DNA from: Catajapyx aquilonaris
Lineage: Eukaryota
Direction: 5' to 3'
Assembly: GCA_000934665.2 (NCBI GenBank)
Contig: JYFJ02003487.1
Coordinates: 1 to 40,899, forward strand
DNA: 40,899 bases
The position numbers and the translations under genes were made by a program. Under the pieces are notes generated by a model. The model saw nothing but the letters and a program-made list of their open reading frames with translations, was not told where the DNA came from and made no database searches. Shown here one piece after another: positions 3,949 to 27,900 of this stretch (the stretch's first letter is position 1; the number at the start of each line of letters is the position of its first letter).

Positions 3949-6900
3949 GTTTATATAGAACGACCAGTACGGCAGGTAATCCTGTAAAATTTTGAACAAT
4001 TGCGCCTTTAATGATAGAAGCATGAATCTTGGCGCACCTGTAGTAGACAACACCCTAATGGACGTTTTTGGATATAGGGCCATCTGAGATTTTTCTGTAA
4101 CTTAATTGGCAGCCATTTTTCAAGCTGGCCACTAGGTGTCATGTAAACGCCGTATTTTTTGTAGCTATTCATGTTCAATCATTTACTTGAGGCCATGTGA
4201 TGACTATTAGAAGTGAAACTTACTGTAGAAGTAAAAATGAAGCATAGTACAGTGAAACCTGTGTATAGCGTAATCGCACGGGACCCAAAAATTTTCAGTT
4301 ATGGACAGGTTTCCGCTACAACCAGATCAAGGACGTTACTATTTTTTTTGCTCACGAGAAAGAGAGGGAAATGGGGAGAGCAAAAATAAGCACCTTACCT
4401 CCATATGGTGCAAAATCATAATTTTGCCTGCTCCATGGGACCATCAGCCCGGACTCTGGCAATATATTGAACCCGTGTCAACCCCTTCCTCTTCCCCGAC
4501 ATAACTGGACTGAACCGTGAACTAAAAGGTACCTACGAGTCACATGACATGAGTCACGTCTTCTTGGCCCATCTATCCTGAAAGCCGATTTTCAAGTTTC
4601 GGAACCAAAAATATTGCCCCTATCCTCATCCTTTATCTTCAAGGCCACAGGCCATAGCAATTCCAGAAATTACTAGACACAAGTGGTCCAAAAAGGGTTA
4701 CTCAGAGGCCACCTGGAATTGCCGATAGTGAACCCTGCTGTGGTTTCTATTTTTGTGACTCGCAGGATATAATGCGAACCTTTTGATTTCCGCTATGAAC
4801 AGGGATTTTCTCTGAAGGGAGCCAAAAATCCTTTCCCTTTCCGCGTTGGGCAGGTTCCGTTACATCCGTCAAAAATACATTGTATGCCCAATGCATATGC
4901 CCGTTACCGGAAAAAATTCCGGAATGGATAGGTTTCCGCTATATCCAGGGTTCGTTATGGGTGGGTTTCACTGTAGTATATGAAACTAATGATTGGTTAT
5001 GTTCAAAATTTAGAGCATAAAACGCCTAGATCATTTTCTCGATCCATTCAAGGGAAGCAATGGAAGCTGTGGTGTTGAGACCATCGTTATTTGGGCCCAG
5101 GCTGGTCATTGCTGGGCCCAAAAAAGAATCCAGAGTATGCTGCATGAGGGCATCTTGCATGGGAGATATAGTGTCAATTGCTCTACCTTTCTGACTAAAT
5201 AGGCGTTTTCTTGCTTCATTAAGATATTATTCATCGATGCTAGTATGATCATAGAGCAAAACTACAGTTCTCTCCAGGGGGTTCATCTTTTCTTCTACAG
5301 CCTGCTTACTAGGCCTGTGAGCTAATCTACACACAAAAATTTAAAAAAATAAATTGCAACATCGTCATATGCATTCCAGGTGTCCCATGCAGTCCTCTTG
5401 CATGCTTTTTGCTCTATCAAAGGACACATTCTCTCACTCAGTCATTGCGCGAAACATCTGTAAGGCATTGCAACGGTCAGCATCCAAAGCGTTATGCCCG
5501 TACTAATGACCGTACTAATAATATGTTAATGAGGCAAGAAATGGCCGAAGTAGTGAGAAAGGTCTAGCAATTGCCCATTGACAATATACCTTCCAGCTTT
5601 TTTGGGCCCAGCAGTAACCATCAGCCTGATGGTATACCTACCAGGCTGGTTACTGCTGGGTCCAAATAATGATGGTCTCAACACCACAGCTCCCATCACC
5701 ACATGATTGGAGGTGGAAGAAGGATGAAGGCGGATATAAAATACACTGTAGTCCCAATTACAGAGGCGTTGCAAACGCTCGATTTTGCTTGCCATGGCAA
5801 AGAAAAAAGAGTGCAAATCTCAGATGGGGGCAGATATGAAAAGTAACAAAAATAGTTTTGAACAGGTAACTGTCAACGTGACCTATGGTGAAAATATCAA
5901 AAAATTAACAAGTTGATTGAGCAACCACTCCTTGGCCATTTCACATCAAATTACCCTCGGAATGACCTAACATAAACGTGTTGTCCATGTGACCTGGATC
6001 CTTTTTTTCCAGGCGCTTGGTGCATAACCTTCTAATTCTTCTCACTTACCACTCTTGCAGCACACCGACAACTTGCAAAAATGACACTGACTGGCCATGC
6101 GTCTTGTGCAATCGTCCAGGGCTTCCAAACTGCCTTGCAAAGGAGAGGCCTTGTGGCATGCATGAGGTCCCCTGTAGGCTCGGGTACGCCTACTGCATAA
6201 ACCAGCCGAACCAACCTAGACCGTGCCATTGCCGCCCGTACGAGAAACCATGCTGTAACCAGTCACAACTAGCTGGTTGCGAATCTAGGCCCTGCCGGTT
6301 CAACGAGCTCCCCTGCACTTATCCTAACTTCTGCGAGGAAGGTGAATACCCATGCATCCGATGCGGAGAGCCTGGTCAAATTAAATGCGATCAAGATTTG
6401 TGCCACAAGACCTGCCCAAAGTGCAGGCTTTGCAATGAAGACGAATCGCCATGCTTGGTGCGAAGACTCTGCCATCCTGAAGAGTATCCTTGTTCACTGA
6501 ATTGCACAAAAGGCGACAAGAAGTGCAATCGCTGCCAGGTTGAGTATCCATGCGTCCGGCTCCCCAGGGCTTGCCTGCCCAACTTCTGGGGTCTACCCTG
6601 CGGAGAGCAACGTTACCAACAGTGTCCAAGTGGGCCACCTGTAGAGGCCTGTAAAAGTGGAGAGATTCCGTGTTTAATGTACTTACCCTGCAAAAGTGAT
6701 GGTGCCAGATACTGTGTGGAGTGTGGAACCCCTGGACGGCCCGAGTGCACGGACTGCACAGAACCATGCAGATTTGATGAATTGCGGTGTGTCTATAACC
6801 CCCGTTCAGCCCCCGAAAAAGATTCTGCAGAGAATTTTTGGCCATGGCCACCACAACCGACAGCTACGGCACGACAGGGACCAGCAGAGATACAGGGACC

Positions 6901-9900
6901 TGCAGTGATGTCACAGGCACTTGCAGTGAGAGAGGCACCTGAAGTGAAGACAAAGGCTCAAAAATGCCTGTCACCTAGCTGCAAGATTAGAATCGGCACC
7001 ACCCCGAGGTGCAAGGGTAGGAATCGACCATGCAACGTGTGTGATATTCCCTTCGATTACCCAAAGTGTATTGAGGTGAAAATTCCCTGCGATGTGGCTG
7101 TGAACGCATTCACCTGCAATAGGGTAAAGCAGTGCAGGGAAGATGAGGAGCCCTGCTGCGACAAGAGTAAGTCCTTATTTTATTCTTGCATGCCTTAAAT
7201 ATAACTGGCCGGTTCCATTTCAATTCTGACAGAGGGTGACCAGTCATGGCCTTAGATTTTTTTGAACAAAAGATATGTGAAACCCATATCCAAGTGAACC
7301 TTTATGGAGCAATCAAATTTACGAGATTAAATCTAGTTATCGAGAAATTAATATTTATTTTAAGGGGTACCTAAATAACCTTCACGGGAAGTGCACTTTT
7401 TCCATTGCTTTCAATGGGTATATTTCCGGAACCGTTCTGAAAACGAATATGAAATTTTAAACTCATGCTTTTGGAATAATGCTCTGTTATGTAATGCATA
7501 CATTTACCTTATTTAATGGTACAGTCACCTTCAAAAAAATCTACAATCTTGCATATTTTTGTCAAAAATGAGCATATTTCGCAATTTATTACGTCGTTAT
7601 GGTACCCTTAACGGTTGTGCTGATTATATTTTGTGATGTACTCGGTCACCCCCTAAAGGTTATTAAATAAAACCTTGGTTAGCCCGCGTGTAGTTGAGAT
7701 ATGTGACGCGAAAATATGGCAACAAGTGAACACATGCATATTTCAAAAATTATGTTCTCAAAAACGCATTTTTTAATATAAAAAAATTTATTTTACCTGG
7801 ACAAACAGGTTATAAAATGAAGTAGTGTCAAAACCCGGTGCATATTTTTTGTAAGGGAGATACTCTTTTTTTTTCAGATGACTACTTTCGTCATTGTGCT
7901 ACAATACAGCACACTGCACACTTTCTCGAAGAAGCCATTTTAAATATTTAATCGTTATTTTTTGTATAACAAAGTAGCATGAGTTCTATTATAAAATTAT
8001 ATCAAAATTCGGCATGCACAATGCCGTAATTTACTGGTACAGTCATCTTCCGAAAAAATCGCCAAATGTGCTTGTTTTGCTGGAAATTCACTTAGTACGC
8101 AATTTATTATGGAGTTATTATTAAGGTTATTGTAGGGACGATAGTCCCTATAGTAAGACCAAACGACCGAAAACAACAATGAAATGTCCCGCTTTTTTGA
8201 CGAAGCATAACTCAAAAACCCTTACAGATAAAGGTTTCACAGTTTGAACATGACACCAGCTCGGCGTGACGGACGATCCTTTTCCTGTCAGGTTATAGCG
8301 AATTCCTTCGCACAACGCCAGAAAAAAATCTTATATCGGTATTCTCTATAATAATGAAGTTCTTCTCTTAGCAACGATGTAACTCTCTATTTAAAAAATT
8401 CAACATTCTCTATTAATAGAATTAGGCCCGTATTCATAATGGAATTCGAACGAGGGGTCGGGGTTGAACCCGGGGTTGAGGCGGAGTTGACCCCGGGTTC
8501 GTATTCATAATGGCCTTGAAACCCCGCGATCCGGGGTTGAGTCGGGCGGGGAGTTGACTCCGGTCCTGGACCAGGGTTCAGTTCTGAACTCGGGGTTGAG
8601 GTCGATTGCAAAAGGCGGAAGGGGTCGAAATTCATGCCGTTCTGAAGCGGCTAGACCTCCGACGCGTGTGTCTGAGGGACCGGGAGAACCCGATGGAGGT
8701 GTACGACGACGCGACGCGTCCCTCCGGCAACTATACCGCCTGCGGAAAGACTGCGTGTTGAACCTGCTCGAAATGATCGCGGCAGACCTCGTTCTTCCTC
8801 TGTGCCATTCATGTAGCAGCTACGTCTGAACTATTACCTCTTCGGCGTCATCGAAAATATTAGCTGCCAATAGCAGCATAGCCTACATGTAATGAATCTG
8901 CTGGAACCACGTGCCACATGCGGCACCAATGCCAATCCGGGAGTCCGCAAAGAAGGCTGCCACTCCCGCGCCACACGCGGGGTAAAACAGGGCACTGTAT
9001 TTTTTCCAGGTCAACCCGACAGGATTCATTACAAGATTGATTACAAGTATGCTGCTATTGGCAGCTAATATTTTCGATGAAGCTGATGTAGCTGCTACAT
9101 GAATGGCGCAAATAACTGCTATTTGTAACTGTTAATCGTCACTTGAACTTGTGACCTGCTTGTGACCATAGAGTAAGGCTTGTGACGCCCTGTAGCTGGT
9201 AGGATACATTAGTATTCTGATGTACAGTACACCTTCTACAATTTTTGTAGGAAAAGAATGCGTCTCGTACCACCCCGCCATGAAGTACAAAAATAATGGT
9301 CACTGTTGCTCCTCACCCAAAATCTTACCTCAACCAGCCCCCTGAGTTAATTATAGCTTATTCGGTACAATAGATGCTGGTCAGCACTTGCTATTTGGTC
9401 CAATAGTCAGCTCATTTACAGGCGCATATTTTACAATATACTGCAGAAGTTGGGTGACAATAATGGCTATGGCCATTATAGTCAGTGGGTGAGGAGCAAC
9501 AGTGGCCACTTTTGATCTCAGACCCATCACTATAGTGATGGGTCTGAGATCAAAAGTGGCCAAGTCCACTGCAGAAATCATGCACTTTAATGTCATTGGG
9601 TATTAATTGCACATTTGCGTATATGTAGCTGACGAGCTTTGCGGCAACGTAATAATTATATGGTCGTACAAGAGGTTAACGTAAACGCGCCCGATTAAAT
9701 CCTTAGTTTTAGCTTAGCAAAGGTGAATTTTTAGTTAGCTTATTAGCTGTTAGAGAAGCTAATTTTTCGGATAGCTGTGCCCACCTCTGTTCTGTTAGTA
9801 AGTTAGGGTGAAATTTTTGTCGTACTACTAGTTACTTCTAACTTATAGCAGTACCAGTGTAGTGCAATACTGCAAATGTACTGCTAAGTTAGCAGTAACT

Positions 9901-12900
9901 CGTAGTACAACGAAAATTCCGCCGTTCGAAATTAAGTAGTAAGTTAGTCACCTGTTATTTTCACTCATTTGCCAAGCACAGGGCCGTTTCGCGACCCGTC
10001 CGCGTGAGAGTGCTAGCATGTACCAAGCACATAAATTTTTAAAAAAGAACTGCAATTATCACAAAAACCTTCCATTCTGTAAAAAAAGGGTAGTAAGACC
10101 TCTATGGCGGATAGAAATTAATTAAACAAGACAGGTATGCGTAAGACCTAGCTTCACTAGATTATTATTAAAGGATATCGTAATGCTACATTACGAAGGG
10201 TATGTGTAAAATTTTTACTAATATGTGAATATGTAAGCAGGGTCTTACTCATGCATTTCTTTATATTAAAATTATAAATATTGGATGAGACGTGTATCTT
10301 GTCAACCAATGCTGCAAGCCTATGAACTTCTGATATCATTACGAATTATAATAATAATATTATTAGTTCTACATACTTATTATATTATTATAAATAAATT
10401 TATATTATCTTGTTATATTATTATGCATGAGTAAGACCCTACTTACATATTCACATATTAGTAAAAATTTTACACATACCCTTCGTAATGTAGCATTACG
10501 ATATCCTTTAATAATAATCTAGTGAAGCTAGGTCTTACGCATACCTGTCTTGTTTAATTAATTTCTATCCGCCATAGAGGTCTTACTACCCTTTTTTTAC
10601 AGAATGGAAGGTTTTTGTGATAATACAAATGAAACCAATTATGTGCGTACAATGTAGTAAAAGGGCATGTTGTAGGGACAAAATAATATCATTAATATCT
10701 GTATTCAAAGAAGAGATACACCTGGTCAAAGTATGGTCATATGAGAAAACATGCCTGAAAGAAACATTTTTTAACTCAAAAAAGGCATTTTTTAATTTTA
10801 TTTCAATTTCATTTGTGTAGATAATGACTCTCTCTTTCAAAAGATATATCACAAACCCGGGGCGTATGCGTAGTAATTGAAATATATATTTTTGAATGTT
10901 GATTCGATTAACTACGCATATGCCCCGCATTTGTAATATATCTCGACCATATAGAGGCGATTCAGGACAATGTGACAAGAGCACTGCCCGCCGTCACAGA
11001 AAGTGATTTCCAGGAAGCATTCCAACAATGGAATAAATAATTAAAGACTGTCTATTGCCAGTAGAGGGAACTACTTTGAAGGGGCCAGTGCTAAAATTGT
11101 TGCAAATTGAACGATAGAGTGTGTATGGAAAAAGTTTTGTCTTTTTTTGAACACCCCGCGTATATGTTTGAAATGTTATTAAATGATATGTGCATTGGGA
11201 GGTGTGGTGACCGAGATGGTCACATCTCGGCTTGCTGAGTGAAAGGTCCCAGGTTCAATCCCCGCCTGGGAATTCATTTTCACCTGCGTCTGGAGGGTCT
11301 CTGACCTGCACCAAGGAGGTGTCTGGCAACCTAACCTCCTGGGGAACAGCACATGACCCGTTTTACAACACAATGTGCCAACATGTGGCAAGAAACCAAC
11401 CATGTTTTGGTATTTTTTGGAAATATTTAATTGGCCCGTCATAAACAAACATGCATCATTTTTTCATTCATTCAAATTGTATAAAATCTTGAAGCGTATG
11501 CTCCAGCACAGTCAGTCGAGATCTGTTTGCTCATCATTGCTGAAATATGTTACTGTTGTGCATACTTCTCAGTGCAATAGTTTGCACAGGTATTGTTTCC
11601 TGCATTACCTTATTAGCTTCAAATTCTTACACAGTTGTTATAATAGAGCTGTTCTCCTAAGTGTGTCTTTCCCGTTGTATTACCAGAAAGCAAGCCATGT
11701 CCCGATGATTGGATACACCAAGGACATCACTGCTATTACTTTTCAAAAGAAAAACGAACTTGGAACGATGCTCGATGGACCTGCCAAGATTTAAATCCTG
11801 GAGCTGAATTGGCCAGTTTCCATTATGAGATTGAAACGAACGTACTGACAAGTAAGTCAATAATTTGCAAGGATATTAAAACGTGAACTTACAAAGTCAC
11901 AAAGGTTTATTGCATTATCCTGTATGGAATATCATTTTGTCCAATATTTATTCTGATGTACTCTCTCGATGTGTCAGAAAACTGTCTTTGTCTGATAGAG
12001 AAGATTCCATATTGCAGCCCTTTGATTTCTGAACATGTGTTTCTGGTGTTCAATACATTCCGTTGAATCGCATATTTCAATTTTCAGAGCATTTGCATGA
12101 TCGCATGTGGATTGGACTCAAATACCTGGGGACGCCAGGCGAATTGGAATGGAGTGATGGTACTCAAGTGGAAGATCGTTATCTCACTTGGGAGGGTAAC
12201 AAGGCACCCGACTCTAATGAAGAGAAGTGCATAGAACTAAAGAAAACTGGCGAAACGGGGGTATTGAAGGACAATAACTGCGACGAAGAATATAACTTTG
12301 CCTGTGAATTAAGAAACATGAGAGGTAAATATTGGTGTTAATAATGAGATTTTCATGTCAGTAGAAATGTTTTACATGGATTGTTTCCATTTTTAGAAGG
12401 ATGTCCGACTGACTGGAAGAGGAGAGGAGGGAGTTGCTACTACTTTTCTACTTTCCCGGCCAAGTGGACAGATGCTAGGAATTATTGCGTGCTAAATAAA
12501 AGTGCGGATTTGGTCAGCTTCGGTGACGAAGACGAGCAGTCTGAACTAGCAAGTAAGTCATTCGTAGACAAAGTATTAAGTATGACTTCAACTTTTATTT
12601 TTTAAATTACTGTAATTAACCTGGACTGTTTTTCAGGGGATATGGTTGAAGCCGTTTGGATAGGCCTTCATTACAATCCTACTGAGGCAGAATGGAGTTG
12701 GACGGACGGAAGTGAAAGTGAATACCGAAGATGGGGTGAAAAGAAGCCCAATGTGGACAGCCAGTACAAGCACTTCTGTACCGAGGCACTTCCCACAAAA
12801 TATTGGAACAACCTTCTTTGCGATTCTACACGTCGCTTTGTCTGCAAATTTGGTACGGCCAAAAAAAAAAAAAAATTGGCAAAATTGGTCATTTTATCAA

Positions 12901-15900
12901 GAAAGCGAAAGCAGCTGTTAACGCCATTTGGCCTTCACTTCTGAGGCTTAAATTACGGGATTTCAAGGTGGCAATGAAAATATTCACAGCCAGAGTAATA
13001 CCATCGCTGACTTACGCATTTCCGGTATGGGGCCGCAATATTTGGATAATTTGGAGATTGCCCAAAATTACTTTGTCAAAAAAAAATTTGCTCTCCCGAA
13101 CAGCACGGCCGGTTACTACCTACGACTTGAGCTTGGTATTGGACATCTTAAACCACAACTGCTGAAAAGAATATGCTCTTATGTTAGGAAGCTCAAACGG
13201 GAGCAAGAGGACACTCTTTTGAGCAGCGCTTTCCGAAGCCTAACCTCCAGCAAATTACCGGTCGGGTGGGCGACACATGTCAACAACAAGTTGGCACTGA
13301 TAGGCACGGCTATTGAGTCAGTAGATACAGTCGACGTTGCTTTGAACCTGATCAACTACAAACAGACCTTGAGGGAGGCAGACTTTGCAGCATTAAGTCT
13401 CTCGCAAAGATATGAACATTATCACCAAACCTTCCAAATGTACCCTGAAATCCGGTGGCCTACATACAATTTGCCATTGCCAATGCAACGCTTTCTAATC
13501 AATTTAAGGCAGGGATCCAACTATCTGGCCCTTGGGAAGCATTCCTTTAAAATAGATGAAGACACTAGTTGTGAGTACTGCAACCTCCAATCCCCCTTCA
13601 CCCTATGGCATTTATTGCGTGAATGCCCACTGTTTTCCGCAGTGACTGGTTTGAATCAGCAATGTTTAGAGCGCTATCCAATTGACCGCTTTCATCTGAG
13701 CTGGGCTGACTTGTCAGCGATGGAAGTCTTTCAGCTGGATCAATTTTTTCATGTATTAGTGTTCTTGCCCCACATTGACCTTAGCATTTGTTTTCTTTCT
13801 TTTTTTTCTTTTTTGATGTGTAAACATGATTATGACGGCCTGTCCCCCCCCTATATTGGCAATTGCCACAGGGGGTACCACAAATAAATAAATAAATAAA
13901 TAAATAATGACCCGGTGATGCCCACCAGGGTGCAGCCAGGGACCAACACTCTGGGACTTGGCGATGGACACCTGGTTCGAGATAGCGTTGCGGGCCACGA
14001 CAAATGGCATCCGTCTCTTGCTGCAGGCCTACGCGGACGACCAGGTGGTACTTATCATGGCCACTTCGATTACGAAAATAGAGAGGGAGTGGTGTGACCT
14101 GGAGCCTCATTTGAAGACGTGGGCTGCAGACATGGAGCTTGCGTATAACACAAGGAAGACCTAGGGACTTTCCTTCCCTTGGCGTAGAGTCCAATCCAGC
14201 AGCTAGGCAACTGGAACCAAACATCACTTTCCTGGGGGAGAAGGTGGAGCTGAAGGAGTCAGTGAGGGTCGTTGGCCTTCGGATGGACCCGGGTTTAACG
14301 TGGAAACCGCATGTCAGATGGGTCCGAGACAAAGTCAAAAAGCTGGCTGCTGGAATCTGGAGGGTGGGTCGCCAGAACTGGGGTATGACCCCCAGTATTA
14401 GACGTCATGTGTTGATGTGGGCCATCCTGCCATGCTAAGCTATGGGTCGGAAGTGTGGGTACGTCGAGCCAGAGGCTACTGGAACACCAGACACCTTCGT
14501 AGTTTTTGCAAATATTTACTTGGCCCGTCATGAACAAAATATGAACCATTTTTTCATTCATTCAAATTGTATAAAAACTCGGAAGTGTCCGTTCCAGCAC
14601 AGTGACAAGATGTTTGCTCATCAGAGCAGAAATACATATTACTGTTGTGCACACTTTTCAGCGCAATAGTTTGCACAGATATTGTTTCCTACCTTATCTT
14701 ATTAGCTGCAAATTTTTCCACAGTTGTGATAATAGAACTCTTCTTGTAAGTGTGTCTTTTCCCGTTGTATTAACAGAGAGCAAGCCATGTCCCGACGATT
14801 GGGAATACTACGGAGATCACTGCTATCGCGTTTATAAAGAAAACCGAACCTGGAACGATGCTCTAAGTACTTGCCGAGGATTAAATCATGGAGCTGACTT
14901 GGCCAGTTTCCACAGTGATATCGAAGCTAACCTAGTGACAAGTAAGTCAATAATTTGCAAATACATTAAAACTTGAATCAACAAAGTCACAAAGGTTTAT
15001 CACATTATCCTGTATGTAAGGAATATGAGTTTGTCCAATATGTATTCTGATGTACACTCATTGAGTCATGAGAAAACTGTCTGTCTATTAGAGAGGATTC
15101 CATATTACGGCTCTTTATTTTTTAAACATGTGTTTCTGGTGTTCAATACATTCCATTGAATTTCATATTTAAATTTTCAGAGCATTTTTATAGAGATATG
15201 TGGATTGGACTCGTTGTTCTGGAGAAGCCAAGGAACTACACATGGAGTGATGGTAGTAAAGTCGTTGAGAGATATCTCGGTTGGGAAAACCCTAAACCCA
15301 GCTCTGCTGAAGATAAGTGCACAGAACTACTAGAGGAAAACGGGAAATTGAACCACAAGAAGTGCAACACTTCATTGAACTTCATCTGTGAATTCGGAAA
15401 CCAGACAGGTAAATATGGGTGTTAATAGTGATATTTTCAGGTCCGTGGAAATGGTTTACATGGATTGGTTCCAGATTAGACTTTTTCGAAGGAAATTTTT
15501 TTATAGAACATCAGTCTGTCTGTCTGTGGACAGGTCTCAGACAGACAGCCGTGCTATAAGACTTTTTTCAAGCCCCCTGGCTGCCCCCACTGTCCCCAAC
15601 CCCCGACCGCCCATTTCCCCCAGAGAAGACAGACAGACAGTGCCATGCTACAATCCTTTTTTTCAATTTTTGTGGTCTGGGTTCACTCTATCCTCCCCTT
15701 CCCCATGGCTACTTCCTTCCCCCACCACCCCCTCCCCCAGATGACCCTTTCCCCCCACCGTGACGGACGTTGGGGACAATAGCAGTAAACATGAAAAAGT
15801 CTACTCTAATCACTCTCACGTGATTTGCCAATCTTGTTTAGGAGAATGTCCGACTGACTGGATGAAGATAGGATCCAGTTGCTACTACTTTTCGACGTTC

Positions 15901-18900
15901 CCGGCCTACTGGACAGCTGCAAGGAATCATTGTGTGCTAAATAAAAGTGCAGATTTGGTCAATAAAAGTGCAGATTTGGTCAGCTTCGGTGAAGAAGATG
16001 AGCAGTCTAAACTAGCAAGTAAGTCACTCTTAGACGAGGAATTAAGTACGACTTCAACCTATAAAAAAATAACTGTAATTAATCTGGACGCTTCTTCAGG
16101 TGATATGGTTGAAGCCATTTGCATGGACATTGAAGCTAGCATAGAGATAAATAAGTGAATAATTTGCAAACATCTTAAAACTTGAACTAACAAAGGTGTA
16201 TTGAATTATCCTGCATGGAATATCATTTTGTCCAATATTTATTGGTGATTATTGGTGCCATTTATTATTGCAAGCAGATCCTGCTGCTACAAAATATTGG
16301 TATTAATCAGTAACATGTTCGGAAAATTAAAAATGCACTGCACCTCGTATTAGGCCTACAACTTAGCAGAATGGGAAATTGCTATTAAAATACAATCCCC
16401 CTCTTGCGTCAATGCCTTTCATTTATTTCAGGGGTTCTCAGCTGATGTCCCGGGGACCACCTTTGGCCCGCTAACTCGTAGCATCCAAAATAATGCATAA
16501 TAAAATTTCGATCATGCAAACTCATACTAAGCTTCGGACATGATTTTATCAATTGTATGGCCCGGTATGGCCAGCGACCCCTAAGAAGTTACGCGTCCCA
16601 GATTCCTAATTAGTAATAATATAATCAGGTAATGGCCGTTGGCTGTAGCTCCCTGTCTCAAGGTAAAAGGAGAATGGTACTGTCAAAGAAAACAAGGAAG
16701 AATCACCTCACCTGAGATGATGTCGCACTCACAGAGAAGGGGACGCATTTTAAAAATTATTCCCAGTTGCAGTGTTAACTTGCAATTACAGTATGCCGTT
16801 CATAGTGTCCGAAGCTCATAATTATTACGATCCACACAATCTGAGTGAAATGCGGCATCATGCATTGACGCAGTGGCAGACGTCATTTCAGCAGGAACGC
16901 ATGGGCAAGAATAGGGTTGCATTGGCCTAGTCCGCAGTTGAAGATGACAAAGAGGCAAGGAAAGGAGAGGAGTTTTGCTCCATTGTTTACCCCCAGCATC
17001 GAGTTGCTAGCGATCAATTATTGCAACAAACGATGGCGGCCATGTTAACCTGTTGGTGATTGTTGATGTGGGTTTAAATCAGTTGCCAGGGTAAACAACA
17101 ATAGGGGTCTTTCCCTGCAGTCCCACCCTCTTCTTGACATTTCGGCCTTGATTTCGGCAGTGCTAAGCAGCCTTTTGTAAACTGCGCATAAACAATGTGG
17201 TGCATTTATTGCCTTTTCCCAGATCGTCCTTATTCATGCCTTGCACTGACACCGTCATTCTGACATGCAACGTGCACCAATAATGGGGAACTAGCCTTGG
17301 TCTGGGATTTGGGATTTTTGTTCATAACTAGCTAGCCCATGTCTGCAACATACATTCCATCACTCTGTTGCATCAATATGACATTACTGGATAAATTACG
17401 GCACATTTAAAAGTGCCTTCAAAATTGGCGGGAAAAACGGAGGAGCCGGGTGGTGCCAATCGAAAGGGTACACTGAAATGCCTGGTTGACTGCGAGATAT
17501 GAGGAATTTGATTTAGAATTTACCGCGGACGCGACGGAAAGCATTCGCAAGGCGGCTGTAGGCCATCGAGGTGGAGAAGGGGGACCTTTATGTGCCTAAT
17601 TCAGGAGACAGATATTTCCGACCTGGTGGCATCACTGCCACGTACAAAGCGGTTTGAGCTGCTTAGAGTAAAAACTCGCCCGTTACCTGGCAACTAAGTA
17701 AACACTTGGACTGCTAAAATGCCCAGCCGTGTCCATTTTACGACCATGCCGGGGCGCGTTCTATAACATCATTTTTGCGTTCATTTCACTTCGCGTGACG
17801 TCAACATTTTCGAGGAAAACAGTGACGTCACCATTTTCCCACGAAAAAACGCCAATATCTCCGCAACTGAAACTGATATCTTAAAACGGAATACCCCAAG
17901 AAAAATTCAAAAATTATGGGCGAATTTATTATGTAGTTTCCAAAATGAAGGCTAGTTCCCCATTATGCCAAAATTCAACAGACGATGCTATGCAAATGCA
18001 GGCGACAAAATCAAGGAACCCGGAATATGCTGCCACCAAGGTCACGCAAGCCTAGTTCAGGGAAAACATAAGGTAGCACACGGACCCGGGTTAAAAGTGT
18101 GGGGGGATAGACGGCCTTGGTCTCACATAGATAAGGCAAAGCGCAAGCATTCACACTGTCTTTGTCTACGTATTAGAGAAGACTCTATATTGCAGTAGTT
18201 TCATTTTTGAACATGTGCTTCTGGTGTTCTATACATTCCGTTGAATTGCATATTTCAATTTTCAGAGCATTTGTATCTGCACATGTGGATTGGGCTCATT
18301 GTTCGGGCTAAGCCAATCAACTACATATGGAGTGATGGCATGCGAGTGGATGAGGATTATCTCGATTGGGAAAACCCTAAACGCAACTCTGGTGACGGGA
18401 AGTGCACAGAACTACGAGAGAAAGGAGAGAAATTGAACCACGAGAAGTGCGACACTGAATTGAAATTTATCTGTGAATTAAAAAACCAGACAGGTAAATA
18501 TGGGTGTTAATAATGTTATTTTCAGGTCCGTGGAAATGGTTTACATGGATTGGTTCCATTTTTAATAGATTGTCTGACTAACTGGACGAAGATAGGATCG
18601 AGTTGCTACTACTTTTCGTTTGACAAGCTCTCGTGGGACAAAGCAAGGCGTCATTGCGTGCTAAATGAAGCTGCGAATTTGGCCAGTTTCAGTTACCCAA
18701 AGGAGCAGTCTGAACTAGCAAGTAAGTCATTCTTAGACGAGGAATTAAGTATGACTTCAACCTATTAAAAAATTACTGTAATTAACCTGGACTTTTTCAG
18801 GTGATATGGTTGAAGCCATTTGCATGGACATAGAAGCTAACAAAGAGATAAATAAGTCGATAGTTTGCAAATATCTGAAAACTTGAACTAACAAAGTCAC

Positions 18901-21900
18901 AAAGGTTTATTGCTTTATCCTGCATGGAATATCATCTGGTCCAATATTTATTCTGATCAGGGATGGAAAAAGAACCAAAGAATCGGTTCTTTTTCCATCC
19001 TTGATTCTGATGTAACTCTCATTGATGTGTCAGAAAACTGTCTTTGTCTATTAGACAATAGTTCAATATTTCAGGACTTTAATTTTCAAACGTGTTTCTG
19101 GTGTTCAATACATTCCGTTGAATTGCGTATTTCAATTTTCAGAGCATTTGCGTGAGCACATGTGGATTGGACTCTCTTCCCTAGGTAGATACAGTTATAC
19201 ATGGAGTGATGGTACTGTAGTGAATAGGGAGTATATCAAGTGGGGGCCAGGTGAGGGCAAAAACTTTGACGAGAAATGCGTTATACTCAAGAGGGGTCCA
19301 CCAGAGGTATTGCAAGACTTTCCCTGCGATGTTCAATTTTACTTTGTCTGCGAAAAAAAAGAGCCAGGTAAATATGGGTGTTAATAATGATATTTTCATG
19401 TCCGTAGGAATGTTTTACATGGATTGGTTCCATTTTTAGTAGGATGTCAGAAGCAGTGGCTGAATGGATCATCCACTTGCTACTACTTTTCGGGTGATAA
19501 GAGAAGTTGGACAGATGCGCAGACGTTTTGCAGGAATGAGAAATTTTGTGATTTGGTCAGTTTCAGTGACGCAGAGGAGCAGGCTTTCCTAGCAGGTAAG
19601 TATTCTGAGACAAAGAATTACGTTAGACTTCAACATTTTAAAAAATTGCTGTAATTAACCTTGACTGTTTTTCAGAGCTAATGAAAGTGGCTACGGATAG
19701 ATGGGCGCCCAGTAAGTCAATAATTTAAAAATATATTAAAACTTGAACTAACAAAGTCACAAAGGTTTATCACATTATCCTGCATGGAATATCAGTTTGT
19801 CCAATATTTATTCTTTTGTAACCTTCATTGATGTGTCAGAATACTGTCCTTGTTTATTCGAGATGATTCCATATTACAGTACTTTAATTTTTGAACATGT
19901 GTTTCTGATGTTCGTTGAATTGCATATTTCAATTTTCAGCTTATACACAAGTGTGGACTGGACTCAATTCCTTGGACATATGGGCATATAGTGATGGTAA
20001 CAAATATGTTAAGGAATTTATCGCTTGGGGTGATCGTCAACCCACCTCTAATGACGATAAGTGCATAGGAGTCACCCTATACAAAACGAGTCAAACAGAG
20101 GCATTGAGAGCCTGGATGTGCATAAGAGAATTGAAATTTATATGTGAATTAAAAGACCAGACAGGTAAATATGGGTGTTAATAATGATATTTTCTGGTCC
20201 TTAGAAAAATGTTTTACATGGATTGGTTCCATTTTTAATAGATTGTCTGACTAACTGGACGAAGATAGGATCGAGTTGCTACTACTTTTCAACTGTCAAG
20301 CGCAAATGGGAAGATGCGGTTGCTTATTGCAGGAACCTGAATAAAAGTGCAGATTTGGTCAGCTTCAGGGAGAAAGGGGTGCTGTCTGAAGTAGCAAGTA
20401 AGTCATACTTGGAGAAAGAATTACGTACGACTTCCAACATAAATAACAAATTACTGCAATTAACCTAGACTCTTTTTCAGGTGATATGGTTGAAGCCATT
20501 TGCATGGACATAGGATCTGACATAGAGATAAATAAGTGAATAATTTGCAAATATATTTAAACTTGAACAAGCGAAGTCACAAAGGTTTATTGCTTTATCC
20601 TAGATGGAATATCAGTTTGTCCAATGTACGCGCATTGATGTGTCAGAAAAATGTCTTTGTATATTAGAGAAGATCCCATAATTATTGCAGTACTTTGATT
20701 TTCGAATCACATATTTCAATTTTCAGAGCATTTGCGTGATAACATGTGGATTGGACTCACTGCCCTGGACAACCCAATCAAATATAATTGGACTGATTCT
20801 ACTCACGTGGAGGAGAGTCATCTCACTTTTGATGGAACTGATCCCAAGTATGATGTAAAGAAGTGCATAGAACTAAGCAATACAGGGAAATTGATCTACA
20901 CTGAATGCAACAATGAATTTAACTTTGCCTGCAAATCAACAAACGGGACTGGTAAATATTGGTGTTGATAATGATATCTTCATGTCCGTAGAAATGTTGT
21001 ACATGGATTGGTTCCATTTTTAGGAGGATGCCCGCCTGACTGGTGGAGTATAGAATCCAGTTGCTACTACTTTTCGACTGTCAAGTGCAATTGGGCTGAT
21101 GCGAAGAAGGATTGCGAGATAAATAAAAGTGCAGCTTTGGTCCATTTCAGTTACCCAAAGGAGCAGTCTGAACTAGCAAGTGAGTCATTCTTAGAATTAA
21201 GTACGACTTCAACATAAATAACAAATTATCGCAATTAACCTGGACTGTTTTTCAGGTGATATGGTTGAAGCCATTTGGATGGGCATAGAATGTAACATAG
21301 AGATAAATAAGTCAATTATTTGCAAATATCTTAAAACTTGAACTAACAAAGTCACAAAGGTTCATTGCATTATCCTGCATGGAATATTATTTGATCCAAT
21401 ATTTATTCTGATGTACTTTCATTGATGTGTCTGAAAACTGTCTTTGTCTATTATAGAAGATTCCATATTGCAGCACTTTAATTTTCATACATGTGTTTCT
21501 GGTGTTCAATACATTCCGTTGAATTTCAAATTTCAATTTTCAGAGCATTTGCATGATCGCATGTGGATTGGTCTCTTTATCCTGGACGAACCAATCAAAT
21601 TTAATTGGACTGATTCTACTCCAGTGGAAGAGAGTTATCTCACTTCTGATGTAACTAATCTCTTGTTTGATAATGAGAAGTGCATAGAGCTCAACATAAT
21701 GGGGAAATTGATCTACACTGAATGCAACAATGAATTCAACGTTGCCTGCAAATTAACAACCATGACTGGTAAATATTGGTGTTGATAACGATATTTTCAT
21801 GTCCGTAGAAATGTTTTACGTGGATTTGTACCATTTTTAGGAGCATGTCCCCCTGGCTGGAAGAGGAGACTGTTCAGTTGCTACTACTTTTCAACTGTCA

Positions 21901-24900
21901 AGCTCAATTGGACAGCTTCGATTAGTTATTGCAGGGGCTTGCAAGAAAGAGCAGATTTGGTCAGTTTCCATGACCAATTGGAGCGGTCATACGTAGCAAG
22001 TAAGTCATTCTTGTACAGAGAATTACGTACGACTTCCACATCAATAAAAAATTGTTGTAATTAACTTGGACTGTTTTTCAGGTGACATGATTGATGATGA
22101 CGTGTGGATAGGCCTTCATTACAATTCTGATGATGATGAGTGGATGTGGACGGACAGAAGTGCAAATGACTACCGCGGATGGGATACAGAGGATCCCCAT
22201 TGTTTGGACACCGACCAGTGTACCAAGATAGTTTTCCAAAAAGACTGGAAGCACCTTCCTTACGGAGGTGAATCCCATCACTTTGTCTGCAAATCCGCTC
22301 TGCGAGGTACGGACATTTTATTTACAAATAATGTATCATCACATCACTGCACTTTTAATGAAGCCAACCCATGGCCCTCTGAATGGATCAGAAATGACCC
22401 GAACTTCTCTCGAGATAAACTGCAGGCTCTTCAGGAATGTGGCAATTTAGACGAATGAGCTATTCTGGTTACAATGGTTGATGAACATGAATACAACTTT
22501 GTTAAAGAAACATGTATTGTGTACAGTAGCACATTCAAAACCTGTGAATAGCTCATCTTTACGATGTGTAGGATCATTTTCCGATTATCTGGGGACACTC
22601 GTGCAGTCATTAGCCCGGATAATTGTGAGGACAGTGTAATTCCAGGGTGGTTAAGATTCCCTGCGATGTGGCTGTGAAAGCTTTCACCTGCACTATGGTA
22701 AGATACACTTACTTCGTACACTTTTCTTCGACTGGCAAGTTTAGGATTGCATAAGACCACTTTATTGCCAGGGGCAAGTCAACGATAGCAGCCTTATGGT
22801 CTACGCTAGTTCAATTGAAAGTCTGTAATCTCTCCACACCTCATTGAAGCTGTTCTCGGCCCAAATTGCTCCAATCGTTTTATACAATGCTCATGTATGG
22901 AGTCTTGATTATTCAATAGAAACAGAACGATTGCAGCTGTTCTTCATCAAGCTATTCCTATCTCTCCCACCTAACACATGTGGCAAACTACGTATTTGTA
23001 CGTTTAGAATCTGGCCGCAGCACTTTCGTTGTCAATGTCTTCAAAATTATGCTTCAATGGCAGATCAGACTAACAAACATGCCATATGACCAGTTGCCAA
23101 AGAGATGTTTCCATTATGCGGTGAAGAATGGATTACTGTACAAAGCTAACTGCTTTTGACAAAGTCGCTTCTCTTTTGTCAAAAGCAGGCAATACATGGG
23201 ACTATAGTGACCGGCAGGCACGCCATCCCCTGCCGGCTTCACGTCAGGGGCAAATGTCCCCTGACTCTCATCGGCCTCATAACCTATCCTGTCCCCTGCT
23301 CTTTTTCTGCTCTTTTTCCCTCCAAAAACCGTCAAGGCCAGAGTCTCCCAACTCTGGCTGGATCTCCACAAGGTCCGTGCCTTGACTATAAAAGCAGCAC
23401 CAAGGCCCGGGCCACTTCACTTCAGCTGCAGCCTTCAACGAGGAACACCGACTCCGAGCTCCACAGCAGCCACGGCCTACGAGCTCAGCAGCAGCAGCGC
23501 ATCGAACAACCGGTCCTTCTCAGGACCAACATAACAAACGGCCCTTTTCAGGGCCAACACGAGCATCCGTAAAGGGTCACCAAATTGGTGACCCCGACGT
23601 GACCCGAACCAGACGACCGGCCGAGTGATGGCTCCTCCACGGACGTCCGCCGCCACTGCACCTGTGAAGATTCCGCCATTCTGGCCAGAAGACCCGCAAC
23701 TGTGGTTCGCCCAGGTTGAGGCACAGTTCGCCGTCCGGGGAATCACAGCGGAGAAGGCCAGGTTCGACCATGTGCTGGCCTCCCTCGCCCCAGAAGTCGC
23801 CACCCAGGTCCGGGACATCATCATGCACCCGCCCAGCACCGAGCAGTACACCGCCCTTAAGGGGGCACTCATCTCCTGCACCACCGTGTCAGAGTCCCAG
23901 TGTCTGCAGCAGCTGCTGCGAGACATGGACCTGGGTGACCAGCGACCGTCGCAGCTGCTGCGTCGTTTTGAGCAGCTGTACGACAGGCAGCTCAATGAGG
24001 AGCCCATCTTCCGGGAGCTTTTCCTGCAGAAGCTGCCGCAGCAGGTGCGGCTCGTCCTGGCCGCGACACCAGAACAGTCACTCAACCAGTTGGCGGCCAT
24101 GGCCGACAAGCTCACAGATGCTGTCCAACTGCCGTCGGCATCATCTGCCGCAGCCGTCGCCATCCCTGCTGCAGAGGGGCAGCCTCCGGCCGCCGACACT
24201 TCCGGCCTCGAAGAGCTGCGCTCCAATGTAGCAGCGTTGACCGCGGCGGTCCAGAAGCTGGCAGCCGGACACCGTCGGCCTACCAGAATCCGCCCTGCGG
24301 CACGTCCGAAGCCTTCGCCAGCCCCCGTCCGTGCTGCCGCCCAACAAGCAGGTGACCAGACCATATGCTGGTACCACGCAGAATTTGCGGAGAACGCCCG
24401 CATCTGCCGGCAGCCCTGCTCATTCATGATGGGAAACGACAACTAGAGTTGGCGTCGGCAGCATCCAACTCATCACCCAGCCCTTGCAGCCGCCTCTTCA
24501 TCCGCGACCGTCGTACCAAATTTCACTTCCTGATCGACACGGGCGCTGCCCTGAGCATCCTTCCTGCTTCCTCTTCCGACCTGCCTAACCTTCAGCCCCT
24601 GGCGTTAGAAGCAGCGAACCAGAGCACAATTCATTCAGACCTATGGGCAGCGCCTTCTCACCTGTTCCCTCGGACTACCCCGTACCTTCCAATGGCTCTT
24701 TACAATAGCCAGCATACCCCTGCCCATCATCGGTGCCGACTTCCTGCAGAATTTCAACCTGGCTGTTGATCTCCGCGCCAGGAAGCTCGTCGACCTCGAC
24801 AAGCATGTATCGGTCATCGGCTGTCTCCGCCGAACCTCCGCCATCAACCTCAAGCAGAAGCTGGATTCGCCTGACCCGTATGCTGCATTACTGCGCCAGT

Positions 24901-27900
24901 TTCCGGCTCTCATCACGCCCCCGCAGTGTGACGACGTCGTTCGACACTCCGTGAGACACCATATCGAAACGGCCGGACCACCTGTTTTTTGCCAAGCCCC
25001 GTCGACTGGCCCCGGAGAAGCTGGTCCAGGCAAAAGCAGAGTTTGATCATCTGCTCCGTCTTGGGTATGCAAGGCCATCCAGCAGCCAATGGGCGTCACC
25101 CCTACACATGGTGGCAAAGAAGACCGGAGATTGGCGTCCATGTGGAGACTACAGACCTCTTAACGCGGTCACAATCCCCGACCGTTATCCAATCCCACAT
25201 ATCCATGATTTCACCGCCACCATCGCCGGTTCGACCATCTTCTCACACATTGACCTCGTCCGGGCCTTCCATCAAATTCCGGTGGCCGAAGAAGACGTTC
25301 CGAAGACGGCCATCACCACTCCATTCGGCCTGTTCGAATTCACAAGGATGGGATTCGGCCTACGGAATGCAGCCCAGACGTTCCAGAGGTTCATCGACCA
25401 GGTCCTACGCGGCCTGCCTTTCGCATACGCCTATATTGACGACGTTCTTGTGGCCTCTCCTGACCACGAGTCCCACCATCGCCACCTGAGAGACCTGTTC
25501 CAACGACTCGCTGAGCATGGCGTGCACATCAACCCGCAGAAATGTGTCTTCGGCCGCAACGAGCTCACTTTCCTCTGCCACACCATTTCTGCTGCGGGCA
25601 TCCGCCCCTTGCCGGAGAAGGTAGCAGCCATCGGTGACATACCCACACCAACATCTCGGCGGCAGCTCAAACATTTCATCGGCATGGTGGTGTACTACCA
25701 TAGATTTTTGCCGGCAGCCGCTTTGAAGCTCGCCCCACGCGCTGGCTAATGGCTCTACCAACAAGCTGTCGTGGACCACGGAGGCTACTGTTGCTTTTCA
25801 AGACATCAAGCAGATGCTGGCAGAAGCGACTTTACTCTCACATCCTCGCAGCGACGCCTCTTCACGACTCATGACCGACGCGTCCAACGAGCATGTCGGA
25901 GCCGTGTTGCAACAGCTCCAGGATGGACAGTGGCTGCCTCTTGGCTTCTTTTCCCGGAAGTTGACACCAGCAGAGACCCGATACAGTACTTTCGACAGGG
26001 AATTACTGGCCATGTACTCAGCTGTACGTCATTTTCGGCACCTGTTGGAAGGCCAGCCCTTCCACATAATGACGGACCACAAACCGTTGACCTTCATCTT
26101 CCGGACCGCCAGCAGCAAGCTCTCCCCTCGCCAGTGTCGTCACACTGGATACATCTCGGAGTTCACTACGGACGTCCGGTTCATTCCAGGAGCAGACAAC
26201 GTCCTCGCTGATCTCCTCTCTCGACCCGACGTAGCAGCAGTCACCCCCCGGACCCAGGAGGACATCGCTAGAGCGCAGACGACGGACGACGAGCTTCGGA
26301 AACTCCTGGACGGCCCCATCGGTTGCGAGTTTCGCACTTTTCCAGTACCTAATTCTGACCTTGTCCTTACCTGCGACACCTCTGGTGGGCGTTGCCGGCC
26401 TTTATTCCCGCTTCCTTTCCGCCTTCCCATTTTCCAGCAACTACATGACCTGGCACACCCGGGCATGCGTGCCTCGCAACGTCTGGTATCGGAGAGATAC
26501 GTATGGCCTCGCATGCAGTCCGACGTGCGGCAATGGGCCCGTTGCTGCATCAGCTGCCAGAAAGCCAAAATTCATCGCCACACCAAAGCCCCGCTGTCCA
26601 CATTTCCTGCTCCAGACGGTCATTTCCAGCACGTCCACGTCGACCTCGTCGGACCACTACCTACGTCACGAGGCTGTCGCTACCTGTTCACCTGTGTCGA
26701 CAGGTTCACCCGCTGGCCAGAGGCGGTTCCTGTACCGGACATCACGGCGGAGACGGGCACGTGCCCTCATCGCTGGATGGATCTCTCGTTTTGGCCTACC
26801 AGATTGCATCTCCACTGACCGTGGCACCCAGTTCGAGGCATCACTGCACCACCAGCTGCTTCGGTTACTCGGCGTTACCCGTCGCCGTACCTGCGCCTAT
26901 CACCCACAGGCCAACTCAATGGTAGAGCGCTTCCACCGACAGCTGAAGGCATCCCTCCGTGCGCTTCCTTCACCGGACAATTGGGTCGATGCACTTCCCC
27001 TCGTCCTGCTCGGCATCCGTACGGCGCACAAAGCGGACATAAACGCCAGCTGCGCCGAACTCACGTACGGCACGTGCCTTCGGCTTCCTGGAGAGCTATT
27101 CACACCGCCAGCTACGCTGCTAGCCACACCACCGGACGTCGCGACGTACCTCCGTCGGCTCCAGGAGGTGTTCCAGCTCATTCGCCCCCAGCCAGGGTCA
27201 CGGCACGGCACGGCACCCTGTTTTCAGCACCCGGACCTGCATGCGACGACGCATGTGTTCGTCCGTCACGACGCCTCAAGTCCACCTCTGCGCCCCCCCT
27301 ACGACGGCCCGTAGCCCGTGACCAGCCGAAGCGACAAGTACTTCGCCGTGCAGATCGGGCAGAGGAGCACCAACGTGTCCGTGGACCGCCTGAAGCCAGC
27401 ATTCATTGAGGCCGCGGCTGGGCAGACTCCAGGCAACCCGGTCACTGACGACACTACCTCACCGGCCCGTTCCATGAGCTGCCGCCGGTCCGACCGCATC
27501 GCCAACCAGGTGTCATGTCTGGACGACGATCCAGCCACTGGAGGGGGGTTAATATAGTGACCGGCAGGCACGCCATCCCCTGCCGGCTTCACGTCAGGGG
27601 CAAATGTCCCCTGACTCTCATCGGCCTCATAACCTATCCTGTCCCCTGCTCTTTTTCTGTTCTTTTTCCCTCCAAAAACCTTCAAGGCCAGAGTCTCCCA
27701 ACTCTGGCTGGATCTCCACAAGGTCCGTGCCTTGACTATAAAAGCAGCACCAAGGCCCGGGCCACTTCACTTCAGCTGCAGCCTTCAACGAGGAACACCG
27801 ACTCCGAGCTCCACAGCAGCCACGGCCTACGAGCTCAGCAGCAGCAGCAGCAGCGCATCGAACAACCGGTCCTTTTCAGGACCAACATAACAAACAGCCC

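Follow-up and report, generated by a model that had tools for sequence, protein, structure and literature searches.

Introduction

Oyster bindin F-lectins, according to a review, combine recombination in a mid-domain intron with variable repeat number, alternative splicing and positive selection (PMC5712786). They are the closest lectin precedent for the locus examined here, an array of C-type lectin-like domains (CTLDs) encoded by half-domain exons in Catajapyx aquilonaris, and the mechanism at this locus is of a known kind. The array lies on contig JYFJ02003487.1 of assembly GCA_000934665.2, the 40,899 nucleotides (nt) of which we call the window, a stretch of eukaryotic DNA in which introns are short and several mobile elements occur. 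We consider it probable that a cassette of four half-domain exons, A-B-C-D, encoding two CTLDs, underwent a half-domain-offset duplication, giving a predicted 11-CTLD protein with five recombinant domains.

The oyster gene resembles this locus in having tandem lectin domains split mid-domain by an intron, where recombination gives half-and-half domains, as well as in its variable repeat number, positive selection and a retroelement beside the repeats (PMC5712786). The two differ in fold, which is F-type in the oyster and C-type here. Recombination in the oyster is described as running through the intron between alleles or repeats, whereas here we see a fixed duplication with breakpoints in exons and a scar pseudo-exon; alternative splicing is documented there and is only a predicted possibility here (PMC5712786).

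Against solved structures, the best matches of the half-domains fell in the mannose-receptor family (DEC-205/LY75, PLA2R, FcRY, MRC1), with E-values, summed over many CTLDs, of 6e-19 for a D half against FcRY, 2e-17 for a D half against DEC-205 and 1e-11 for the B2 half against DEC-205. Members of this family likewise carry long strings of non-identical CTLDs. In that family (group VI), N-terminal ricin-type and fibronectin type II domains precede the CTLD string, which is followed by a transmembrane tail, whereas in our gene model a signal exon joins the first CTLD directly; a Pfam scan of 11 open reading frames (ORFs), the window not being scanned exon by exon, gave no ricin-type or fibronectin type II match. 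We know of no mannose-receptor domain that arose by a half-domain register shift. The classical register-shifted hybrids are haptoglobin Hp2, haemoglobin Lepore, the long homologous repeats of CR1 and kringle IV-2 of LPA, in which, as here, a register-shifted duplication joins paralogous parts and the new unit is then amplified. This locus differs from them in that the join is predicted to be made by splicing over a retained scar and in that the unit consists of two half-domains.

For rates of change, venom genes provide the nearest comparison. Nakashima et al. reportedly found introns conserved in venom PLA2 genes. A published account of venom CTLP and PLA2 genes speaks of 'accelerated evolution', with KA/KS >1 and coding sequence changing faster than non-coding sequence (PMC6062510). 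Snake-venom lectins thus resemble the present locus in their duplicated CTLD genes, the coding regions of which outpace the non-coding ones; there the pattern holds between separate genes, whereas here it holds between the half-domain exons of one array, with the scars as a control (PMC6062510). Our literature search returned no paper on hybrid-domain tandem exon duplication in C-type lectins, from which we do not claim that the locus is unpublished.

Exon architecture and half-domain types

Exon boundaries were read off the sequence and then checked by script, giving 22 half-CTLD exons in the order A-B-C-D / A-(B-C)x6-D / A-B-C-D. This is the arrangement that an earlier note on this DNA had claimed, namely a cassette present three times with its middle copy expanded to six B-C pairs. 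Self-BLASTN placed the cassettes, about 78% alike, at 11363-12850, 14496-16243 (continuing to 22384) and 28584-30180, and found an inner repeat of roughly 800 bp running from 18155 to 22094 within the middle cassette; the E-values (1e-40 to 0) exclude chance, and the repeat unit is B-C, as the note had stated. Its proposal that the B-C unit was duplicated out of register is borne out by frame-preserving exons and by a scar of D and A sequence (D'/A') at 5/5 internal junctions. An offset B-C unit, five scars out of five and phase 1-1 exons are together the marks of a register-shifted tandem exon duplication.

All exons lie on the plus strand. Cassette 1 (11687-12852) encodes CTLDs 1 and 2 with A at 11687-11851, B at 12088-12324, C at 12397-12552 and D at 12637-12852. 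Cassette 2 begins with A (14777-14941) and B1 (15181-15408), which together (14777-15408) would form CTLD 3, of the parental A+B type. The five predicted recombinant CTLDs follow, bounded by the first base of C1 (15842) and the last base of B6 (21768): C1 (15842-16018) with B2 (18266-18493), C2 (18569-18721) with B3 (19143-19367), C3 (19440-19595) with B4 (19940-20164), C4 (20242-20397) with B5 (20727-20951), and C5 (21024-21179) with B6 (21544-21768). The cassette closes with C6 (21841-21999) and D (22082-22306), which would make CTLD 9 (21841-22306), of the parental C+D type. Cassette 3 (28918-30100), encoding CTLDs 10 and 11, has A at 28918-29082, B at 29314-29571, C at 29644-29796 and D at 29879-30100. 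Measured from scar to scar, the B-C unit has a period of 775-875 bp, or 2701 bp at the unit that holds a 1.9-kb insertion. Exon C1 also contains a perfect 21-bp tandem duplication (15940-15982), which adds seven residues in frame (NKSADLV twice).

The script found an AG acceptor, a GT donor and a length divisible by three in 22/22 exons each. A pyrimidine tract stands at the acceptors of all 22, and every exon opens with the last two bases of a codon, making the exons symmetric (phase 1-1). Joined in series they make up 4275 nt, a reading frame of 1424 codons with 0 stops (script), and because all introns are of phase 1, the predicted splicing of C to B stays in frame.

The Pfam search took in 16 of the 22 exons, eight C-terminal halves (B or D) and eight N-terminal halves (A or C). 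B and D exons align to positions 40-107 of the Lectin_C profile (PF00059), and seven of the eight C-terminal halves score above its cut-off of 22.6 bits (25.5-48.0), B4 reaching 22.0. N-terminal halves align to positions 2-31, with C3 alone above the cut-off (24.0); the other seven gave one sub-threshold Lectin_C match, four weak matches to UL45, which is a C-type-lectin-like family, and two no match at all. Weak profile scores are to be expected of half-domains, which are short. CTLDs are recognised by a six-cysteine pattern in their long form and by the WIGL strand, and each CTLD here is interrupted by a phase-1 intron directly ahead of that strand. In the protein alignment, the three cysteine columns of the N-terminal halves are filled in 11/11, 11/11 and 11/11 rows and those of the C-terminal halves in 11/11, 10/11 and 11/11, so that 65/66 structural cysteine cells are occupied over the six columns. 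WIGL is exact in 9/11 rows, B4 having WTGL and the D exon of cassette 3 WIGY. Calcium-dependent sugar sites in this fold carry an EPN or QPD tripeptide together with WND. In the alignment, the B-type halves carry neither EPN/QPD nor WND at the expected columns, where they read, for example, ENPKP...LNH or GPGEG...LQD, and the D halves have only PN or EP and W-N/K/F variants. We therefore name the domains CTLDs and make no claim of sugar binding.

Separate protein trees divide the halves cleanly, with support of 100/100 for the split between A and C and 100/99 for that between B and D. All six N-terminal halves of the middle array are of type C and all six C-terminal halves of type B, which is how the earlier note had expected them to sort. 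As A and C share only 33.5% amino-acid identity, and B and D 24.8%, the predicted C+B domains would be recombinants of two paralogous halves of one fold. The recombination of C and B halves claimed in that note thus stands, whereas its phrase 'inventing new domains' is too strong for paralogous halves that belong to a single fold.

The note had also proposed structure prediction of a hybrid, and the C2 and B3 halves, folded as two chains in three runs, do pack like one CTLD. The two-chain score had a median of 0.69 over the three runs, against 0.04 for the best control; this value is reached by 51/78 solved complexes and 2/108 mismatched pairs. Contact agreement was at least 97% and the partner's predicted local distance difference test (pLDDT) score at least 76. 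In the predicted fold, Cys29 of C2, in the helix, touches Cys69, the last cysteine of B3, like the inter-half disulphide of a CTLD. According to the model, then, the two halves are compatible, which does not imply that the hybrid is produced; CTLDs are common among solved structures, and the pass may reflect the model's memory of the fold.

Scars at the internal junctions

A scar follows each of C1 to C5, at all five internal junctions of the middle cassette. In order, one reads the C|D intron up to the D acceptor, about 26 nt from the start of D, then the final 25 nt of A with the A donor, and the A|B intron. On the plus strand, J1 (16100-16150, 51 nt) has its donor changed from GTAAGT to ATAAGT, and the same dead donor is found in J2 (18801-18851), J4 (20481-20531) and J5 (21256-21306), each likewise 51 nt long. 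These four scars are 45-48/51 identical to one another (88-94%), and the G-to-A change at donor position +1, being common to them, predates their amplification. J3 (19676-19711, plus strand, 36 nt) keeps both AG and GTAAGT intact and is open in phase 1; it has lost 15 nt in frame and is nearly unrecognisable in sequence between ordinary flanking introns.

The original scar was 51 nt long, open and of phase 1-1. Its D'/A' composition shows that the array was derived from an A-B-C-D cassette and not the reverse. The duplication breakpoints lie inside exons D (at about +26 nt) and A (at about -25 nt), whereas plain unequal crossing-over from intron to intron would have put them in introns; breakpoints within exons account for the relic pseudo-exon that each unit carries and that the earlier note had not described. 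J3 may be a live mini-exon of 12 codons between C3 and B4, and the fastest exons, C3, B3 and B4, surround it.

We propose the following course of events. A two-CTLD cassette, A-B-C-D, would have been triplicated, and the middle copy would have undergone one tandem duplication with its left break 25 nt before the end of A and its right break about 26 nt into D, yielding A-B-C-[D'/A' scar]-B-C-D. Unequal crossing-over among the new units could then have raised the number of B-C pairs to six. Symmetric phase 1-1 exons would let each C splice to the next B, giving five in-frame CTLDs with an N-terminal half of the domain-2 type, a C-terminal half of the domain-1 type and the inter-half disulphide kept. 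Four scars would be skipped following the loss of the donor by the +1 G-to-A change, while J3 may still be included.

Divergence and history of the units

Exons and introns were compared over eight B-C units (11852-22081 and 29083-29878). The mean pairwise difference is 0.330 in exons (bootstrap 0.305-0.356) and 0.144 in introns (0.125-0.164), a 2.3-fold contrast, with 0.159 for intron interiors alone; exons are the more divergent in 28/28 unit pairs. Gaps are divisible by three in 14/14 cases in exons and 5/23 in introns. Differences at codon positions 1, 2 and 3 are 0.313, 0.356 and 0.313, the second position being the highest, and four-fold sites differ by 0.27. The NG86 ratio of non-synonymous to synonymous change (dN/dS) exceeds 1 in 35/56 pairs of B or C exons and is about 1.1 overall (mean dN/dS 0.51/0.45 for B and 0.37/0.36 for C).

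The scars act as an internal control: those without a donor are conserved like introns, and J3, which has both splice sites, diverges like an exon. The same 51 nt are thus conserved when unspliceable and rewritten when spliceable, which ties the excess divergence to exon status. Plain neutral decay was rejected as an explanation, given that the frames are open, exon gaps are in frame and exons outpace introns. When bases were substituted at random at rates of 10, 18 or 25% per site, all 12 middle B and C exons stayed open in 0/2000 trials at each rate. Purifying selection fails as well, as it predicts exons slower than introns, the opposite of what is seen, and the view that gene conversion by itself keeps the introns alike was rejected because its tracts would have to skip exons of 150-230 nt between introns of 72-84 nt. 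Open frames, in-frame gaps and exons faster than introns together suggest that the half-domain exons reach protein and change faster than the introns between them, like those of rapidly evolving recognition or toxin-like proteins.

These values also bear on the assembly. Tandem repeats are prone to misassembly, a matter of general knowledge that would favour an artefactual repeat count, and yet divergence between the units amounts to 14% in introns and 33% in exons, and there are unit-specific insertions. Units so divergent could not have been collapsed or duplicated by the assembler, and the window holds a single N, at 1031; we give an assembly artefact almost no credence.

The conservation of introns could instead reflect splicing control elements. 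The array would then be a pool of alternative cassette exons, each transcript taking a variable subset of B-C pairs, or one B and one C, and producing lectins of varying CTLD number. We hold this to be unlikely, although it has points in its favour: all 22 exons are symmetric, and introns are more conserved than exons. Dscam-type exon clusters have, before each variable exon, a docking site complementary to a selector. No such docking or selector arrangement was found in 14400-22500, where 25 inverted pairs with arms of 16-28 nt are 71-95% complementary, all of them short and imperfect, and none links one unique site to all units. In oyster bindin, on the other side, alternative splicing sets the repeat number at 1 to 5, according to the review cited above (PMC5712786). 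A pool of alternative exons would in any case be compatible with hybrid domains, as most subsets still join C to B. A bolder version, in which the array is a diversity generator whose symmetric half-domain exons are combined into many CTLDs by alternative splicing, strikes us as quite doubtful. On this version, unequal crossing-over and short conversion tracts would also reshuffle the units, and hyper-divergence would be confined to exons, with the live and dead scars tying the acceleration to inclusion in messenger RNA and not to position in the locus.

Returning to the half-domain-offset duplication, which we favour, the order of its later steps is poorly recorded. Introns give a star-shaped tree, its terminal branches measuring 0.066-0.10 and 0/5 inner branches being supported, and the exon trees support only B5 with B6 (100/99) and the C exon of cassette 1 with C1 (96/95). 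An ordered duplication history was therefore dropped. Either the triplication and the B-C amplification would have been close in time, or the introns would have been homogenised until a common date. Units 2 and 4 share an identical 78-nt tract (18540-18617 and 20213-20290) that runs out of the B|C intron, across an acceptor displaced by 3 nt, into the first 49 nt of exon C; outside it, the C exons of the two units have strongly diverged. Such a tract indicates a later exchange between units and is probably a gene-conversion tract.

Gene context and points against the reading

Exon 0 of cassette 1 (11547-11589, plus strand) supplies a start codon, a 14-residue hydrophobic, signal-peptide-like leader and a GT donor of phase 1; about 70 bp upstream stands a TATA-like 'tataaaatc', and a 97-nt intron separates exon 0 from the first CTLD exon. 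Alignment shows that in its counterpart in cassette 2 (14636-14678, plus strand) ATG has become ATA and the donor GT has become AT. The counterpart in cassette 3 (28782-28823, plus strand) keeps its donor; its ATG reads GTG, 1 nt has been deleted and there is no methionine in frame. Exon 0 is thus intact only in cassette 1, and D donors and A acceptors are compatible in phase. With only one intact start exon, the three cassettes most likely encode one secreted protein of 11 CTLDs; they were probably once separate tandem genes.

At the other end, a long cysteine-rich exon (34180-36161, plus strand) has an acceptor of phase 1, which the D donor of cassette 3 fits, and is a possible candidate for the 3' exon of the lectin gene. 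The window holds two long cysteine-rich ORFs, at 5993-7198 (401 codons) and 34180-36161 (681 codons). Neither ORF has a Pfam family or a homologue; for the cysteine-rich exon the search gave no hit at E <= 0.001, and its look-up in the ESM Atlas gave only a match of 0.77, without a family. A deleted remnant of the cysteine-rich sequence is seen after cassette 2 (22426-22701). Two stretches that lie past the last D exon and ahead of the cysteine-rich sequence (22380-22458 and 33562-33702) show weak, degenerate similarity to an N-terminal CTLD half (tblastn E 0.035-0.077), with a stop; they may be a decayed fifth half-domain exon. An Rfam scan of the whole window gave 0 matches.

Several observations weigh against the reading that we favour. 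In strength the scar acceptors equal those of real D exons, and they stand about 80 nt past the C donor, so that splicing from C to the scar could compete and give a frameshift or stop; the J1 and J4 frames reach TGA if spliced in, and a cryptic GT gives a 55-nt exon. We see this trapping of splicing by scar acceptors as the main risk to the hybrid domains. In the D exon of cassette 2 (22082-22306), a tyrosine replaces a cysteine conserved in the other ten C-terminal halves, and an additional cysteine occurs upstream. The star-shaped intron tree leaves the duplication order unreadable. Relatives were not found, the B2 half giving no match at E <= 0.001 against longer proteins. A dN/dS near 1, taken alone, fits neutral decay, and four-fold sites (0.27) exceed introns (0.14-0.16), so that part of the contrast could stem from intron constraint or homogenisation and not from selection on the protein.

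Some of these points would also suit amplified units that are not translated at all, C1 splicing into the scar and ending there, or cassettes 2 and 3 being pseudogenes, in which case the hybrids would exist on paper only. The dead exon 0 relics of cassettes 2 and 3, the intact scar acceptors beside dead donors, a dN/dS of about 1 and a cysteine-rich exon reduced to a remnant after cassette 2 are what one would then see. Set against this, the 1424 codons are free of stops although pairwise divergence is about 33%, none of 2000 neutral simulations kept even the 12 middle exons open, and exon indels are in frame in 14/14 cases as compared with 5/23 in introns. Splice-site pairs, moreover, are kept in 22/22 exons, cysteine cells are filled in 65/66 cases, and exons outpace introns, which is not an outcome of neutral decay. 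We therefore regard untranslated units as very improbable.

Insertions and mobile elements

Beyond the lectin exons, the locus has received several insertions. One, in the intron between B1 and C1 (15474-15836), is absent from the other units, and the 1.9-kb insertion (16244-18154) sits in the intron between J1 and B2. The intron of unit 3 holds about 50 extra nt with a hairpin (18956-19005, 21-nt arms 95% complementary), which resembles a small foldback insertion. A long terminal repeat (LTR) retroelement on the plus strand (23203-27940) occupies part of the intron that separates cassettes 2 and 3, with LTRs at 23203-23584 and 27553-27940 and matches to a DUF7041 gag-like region, RVT_1, RNase H and integrase; its LTRs are 97.4% alike, and its insertion is far more recent than the lectin duplications. 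Cassette 3 is closely followed by a DDE_3 transposase fragment on the minus strand (30309-31299), flanked by 78-nt inverted repeats that are 96% alike (30309-30386 and 31228-31151), and this is a Tc1/mariner-like element. Cassettes 1 and 2 are separated by non-homologous DNA (12853-14495) with an A-run directly after the D donor of cassette 1; its ORFs have no Pfam match, one shows a YADD-like motif by eye, and the stretch may be a retroposon fragment.

Implications

Register-shifted duplication that makes hybrid units is classical, and it is unusually easy to read at this locus. What is distinctive here are breakpoints that lie in exons and have left a scar pseudo-exon, as well as the contrast between a live and several dead scars. 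The scars give the direction of the event, its exact breakpoints and a rare internal control. We see the locus as clearly recording the growth of a multi-domain binding protein, in which a single illegitimate, half-domain-offset duplication would have been rescued by symmetric phase-1 introns, yielding recombinant domains at once that later diversified. If transcripts confirm the predicted joins, the array would serve well in teaching and as a test of exon-shuffling theory and of exon-confined acceleration beyond venoms.

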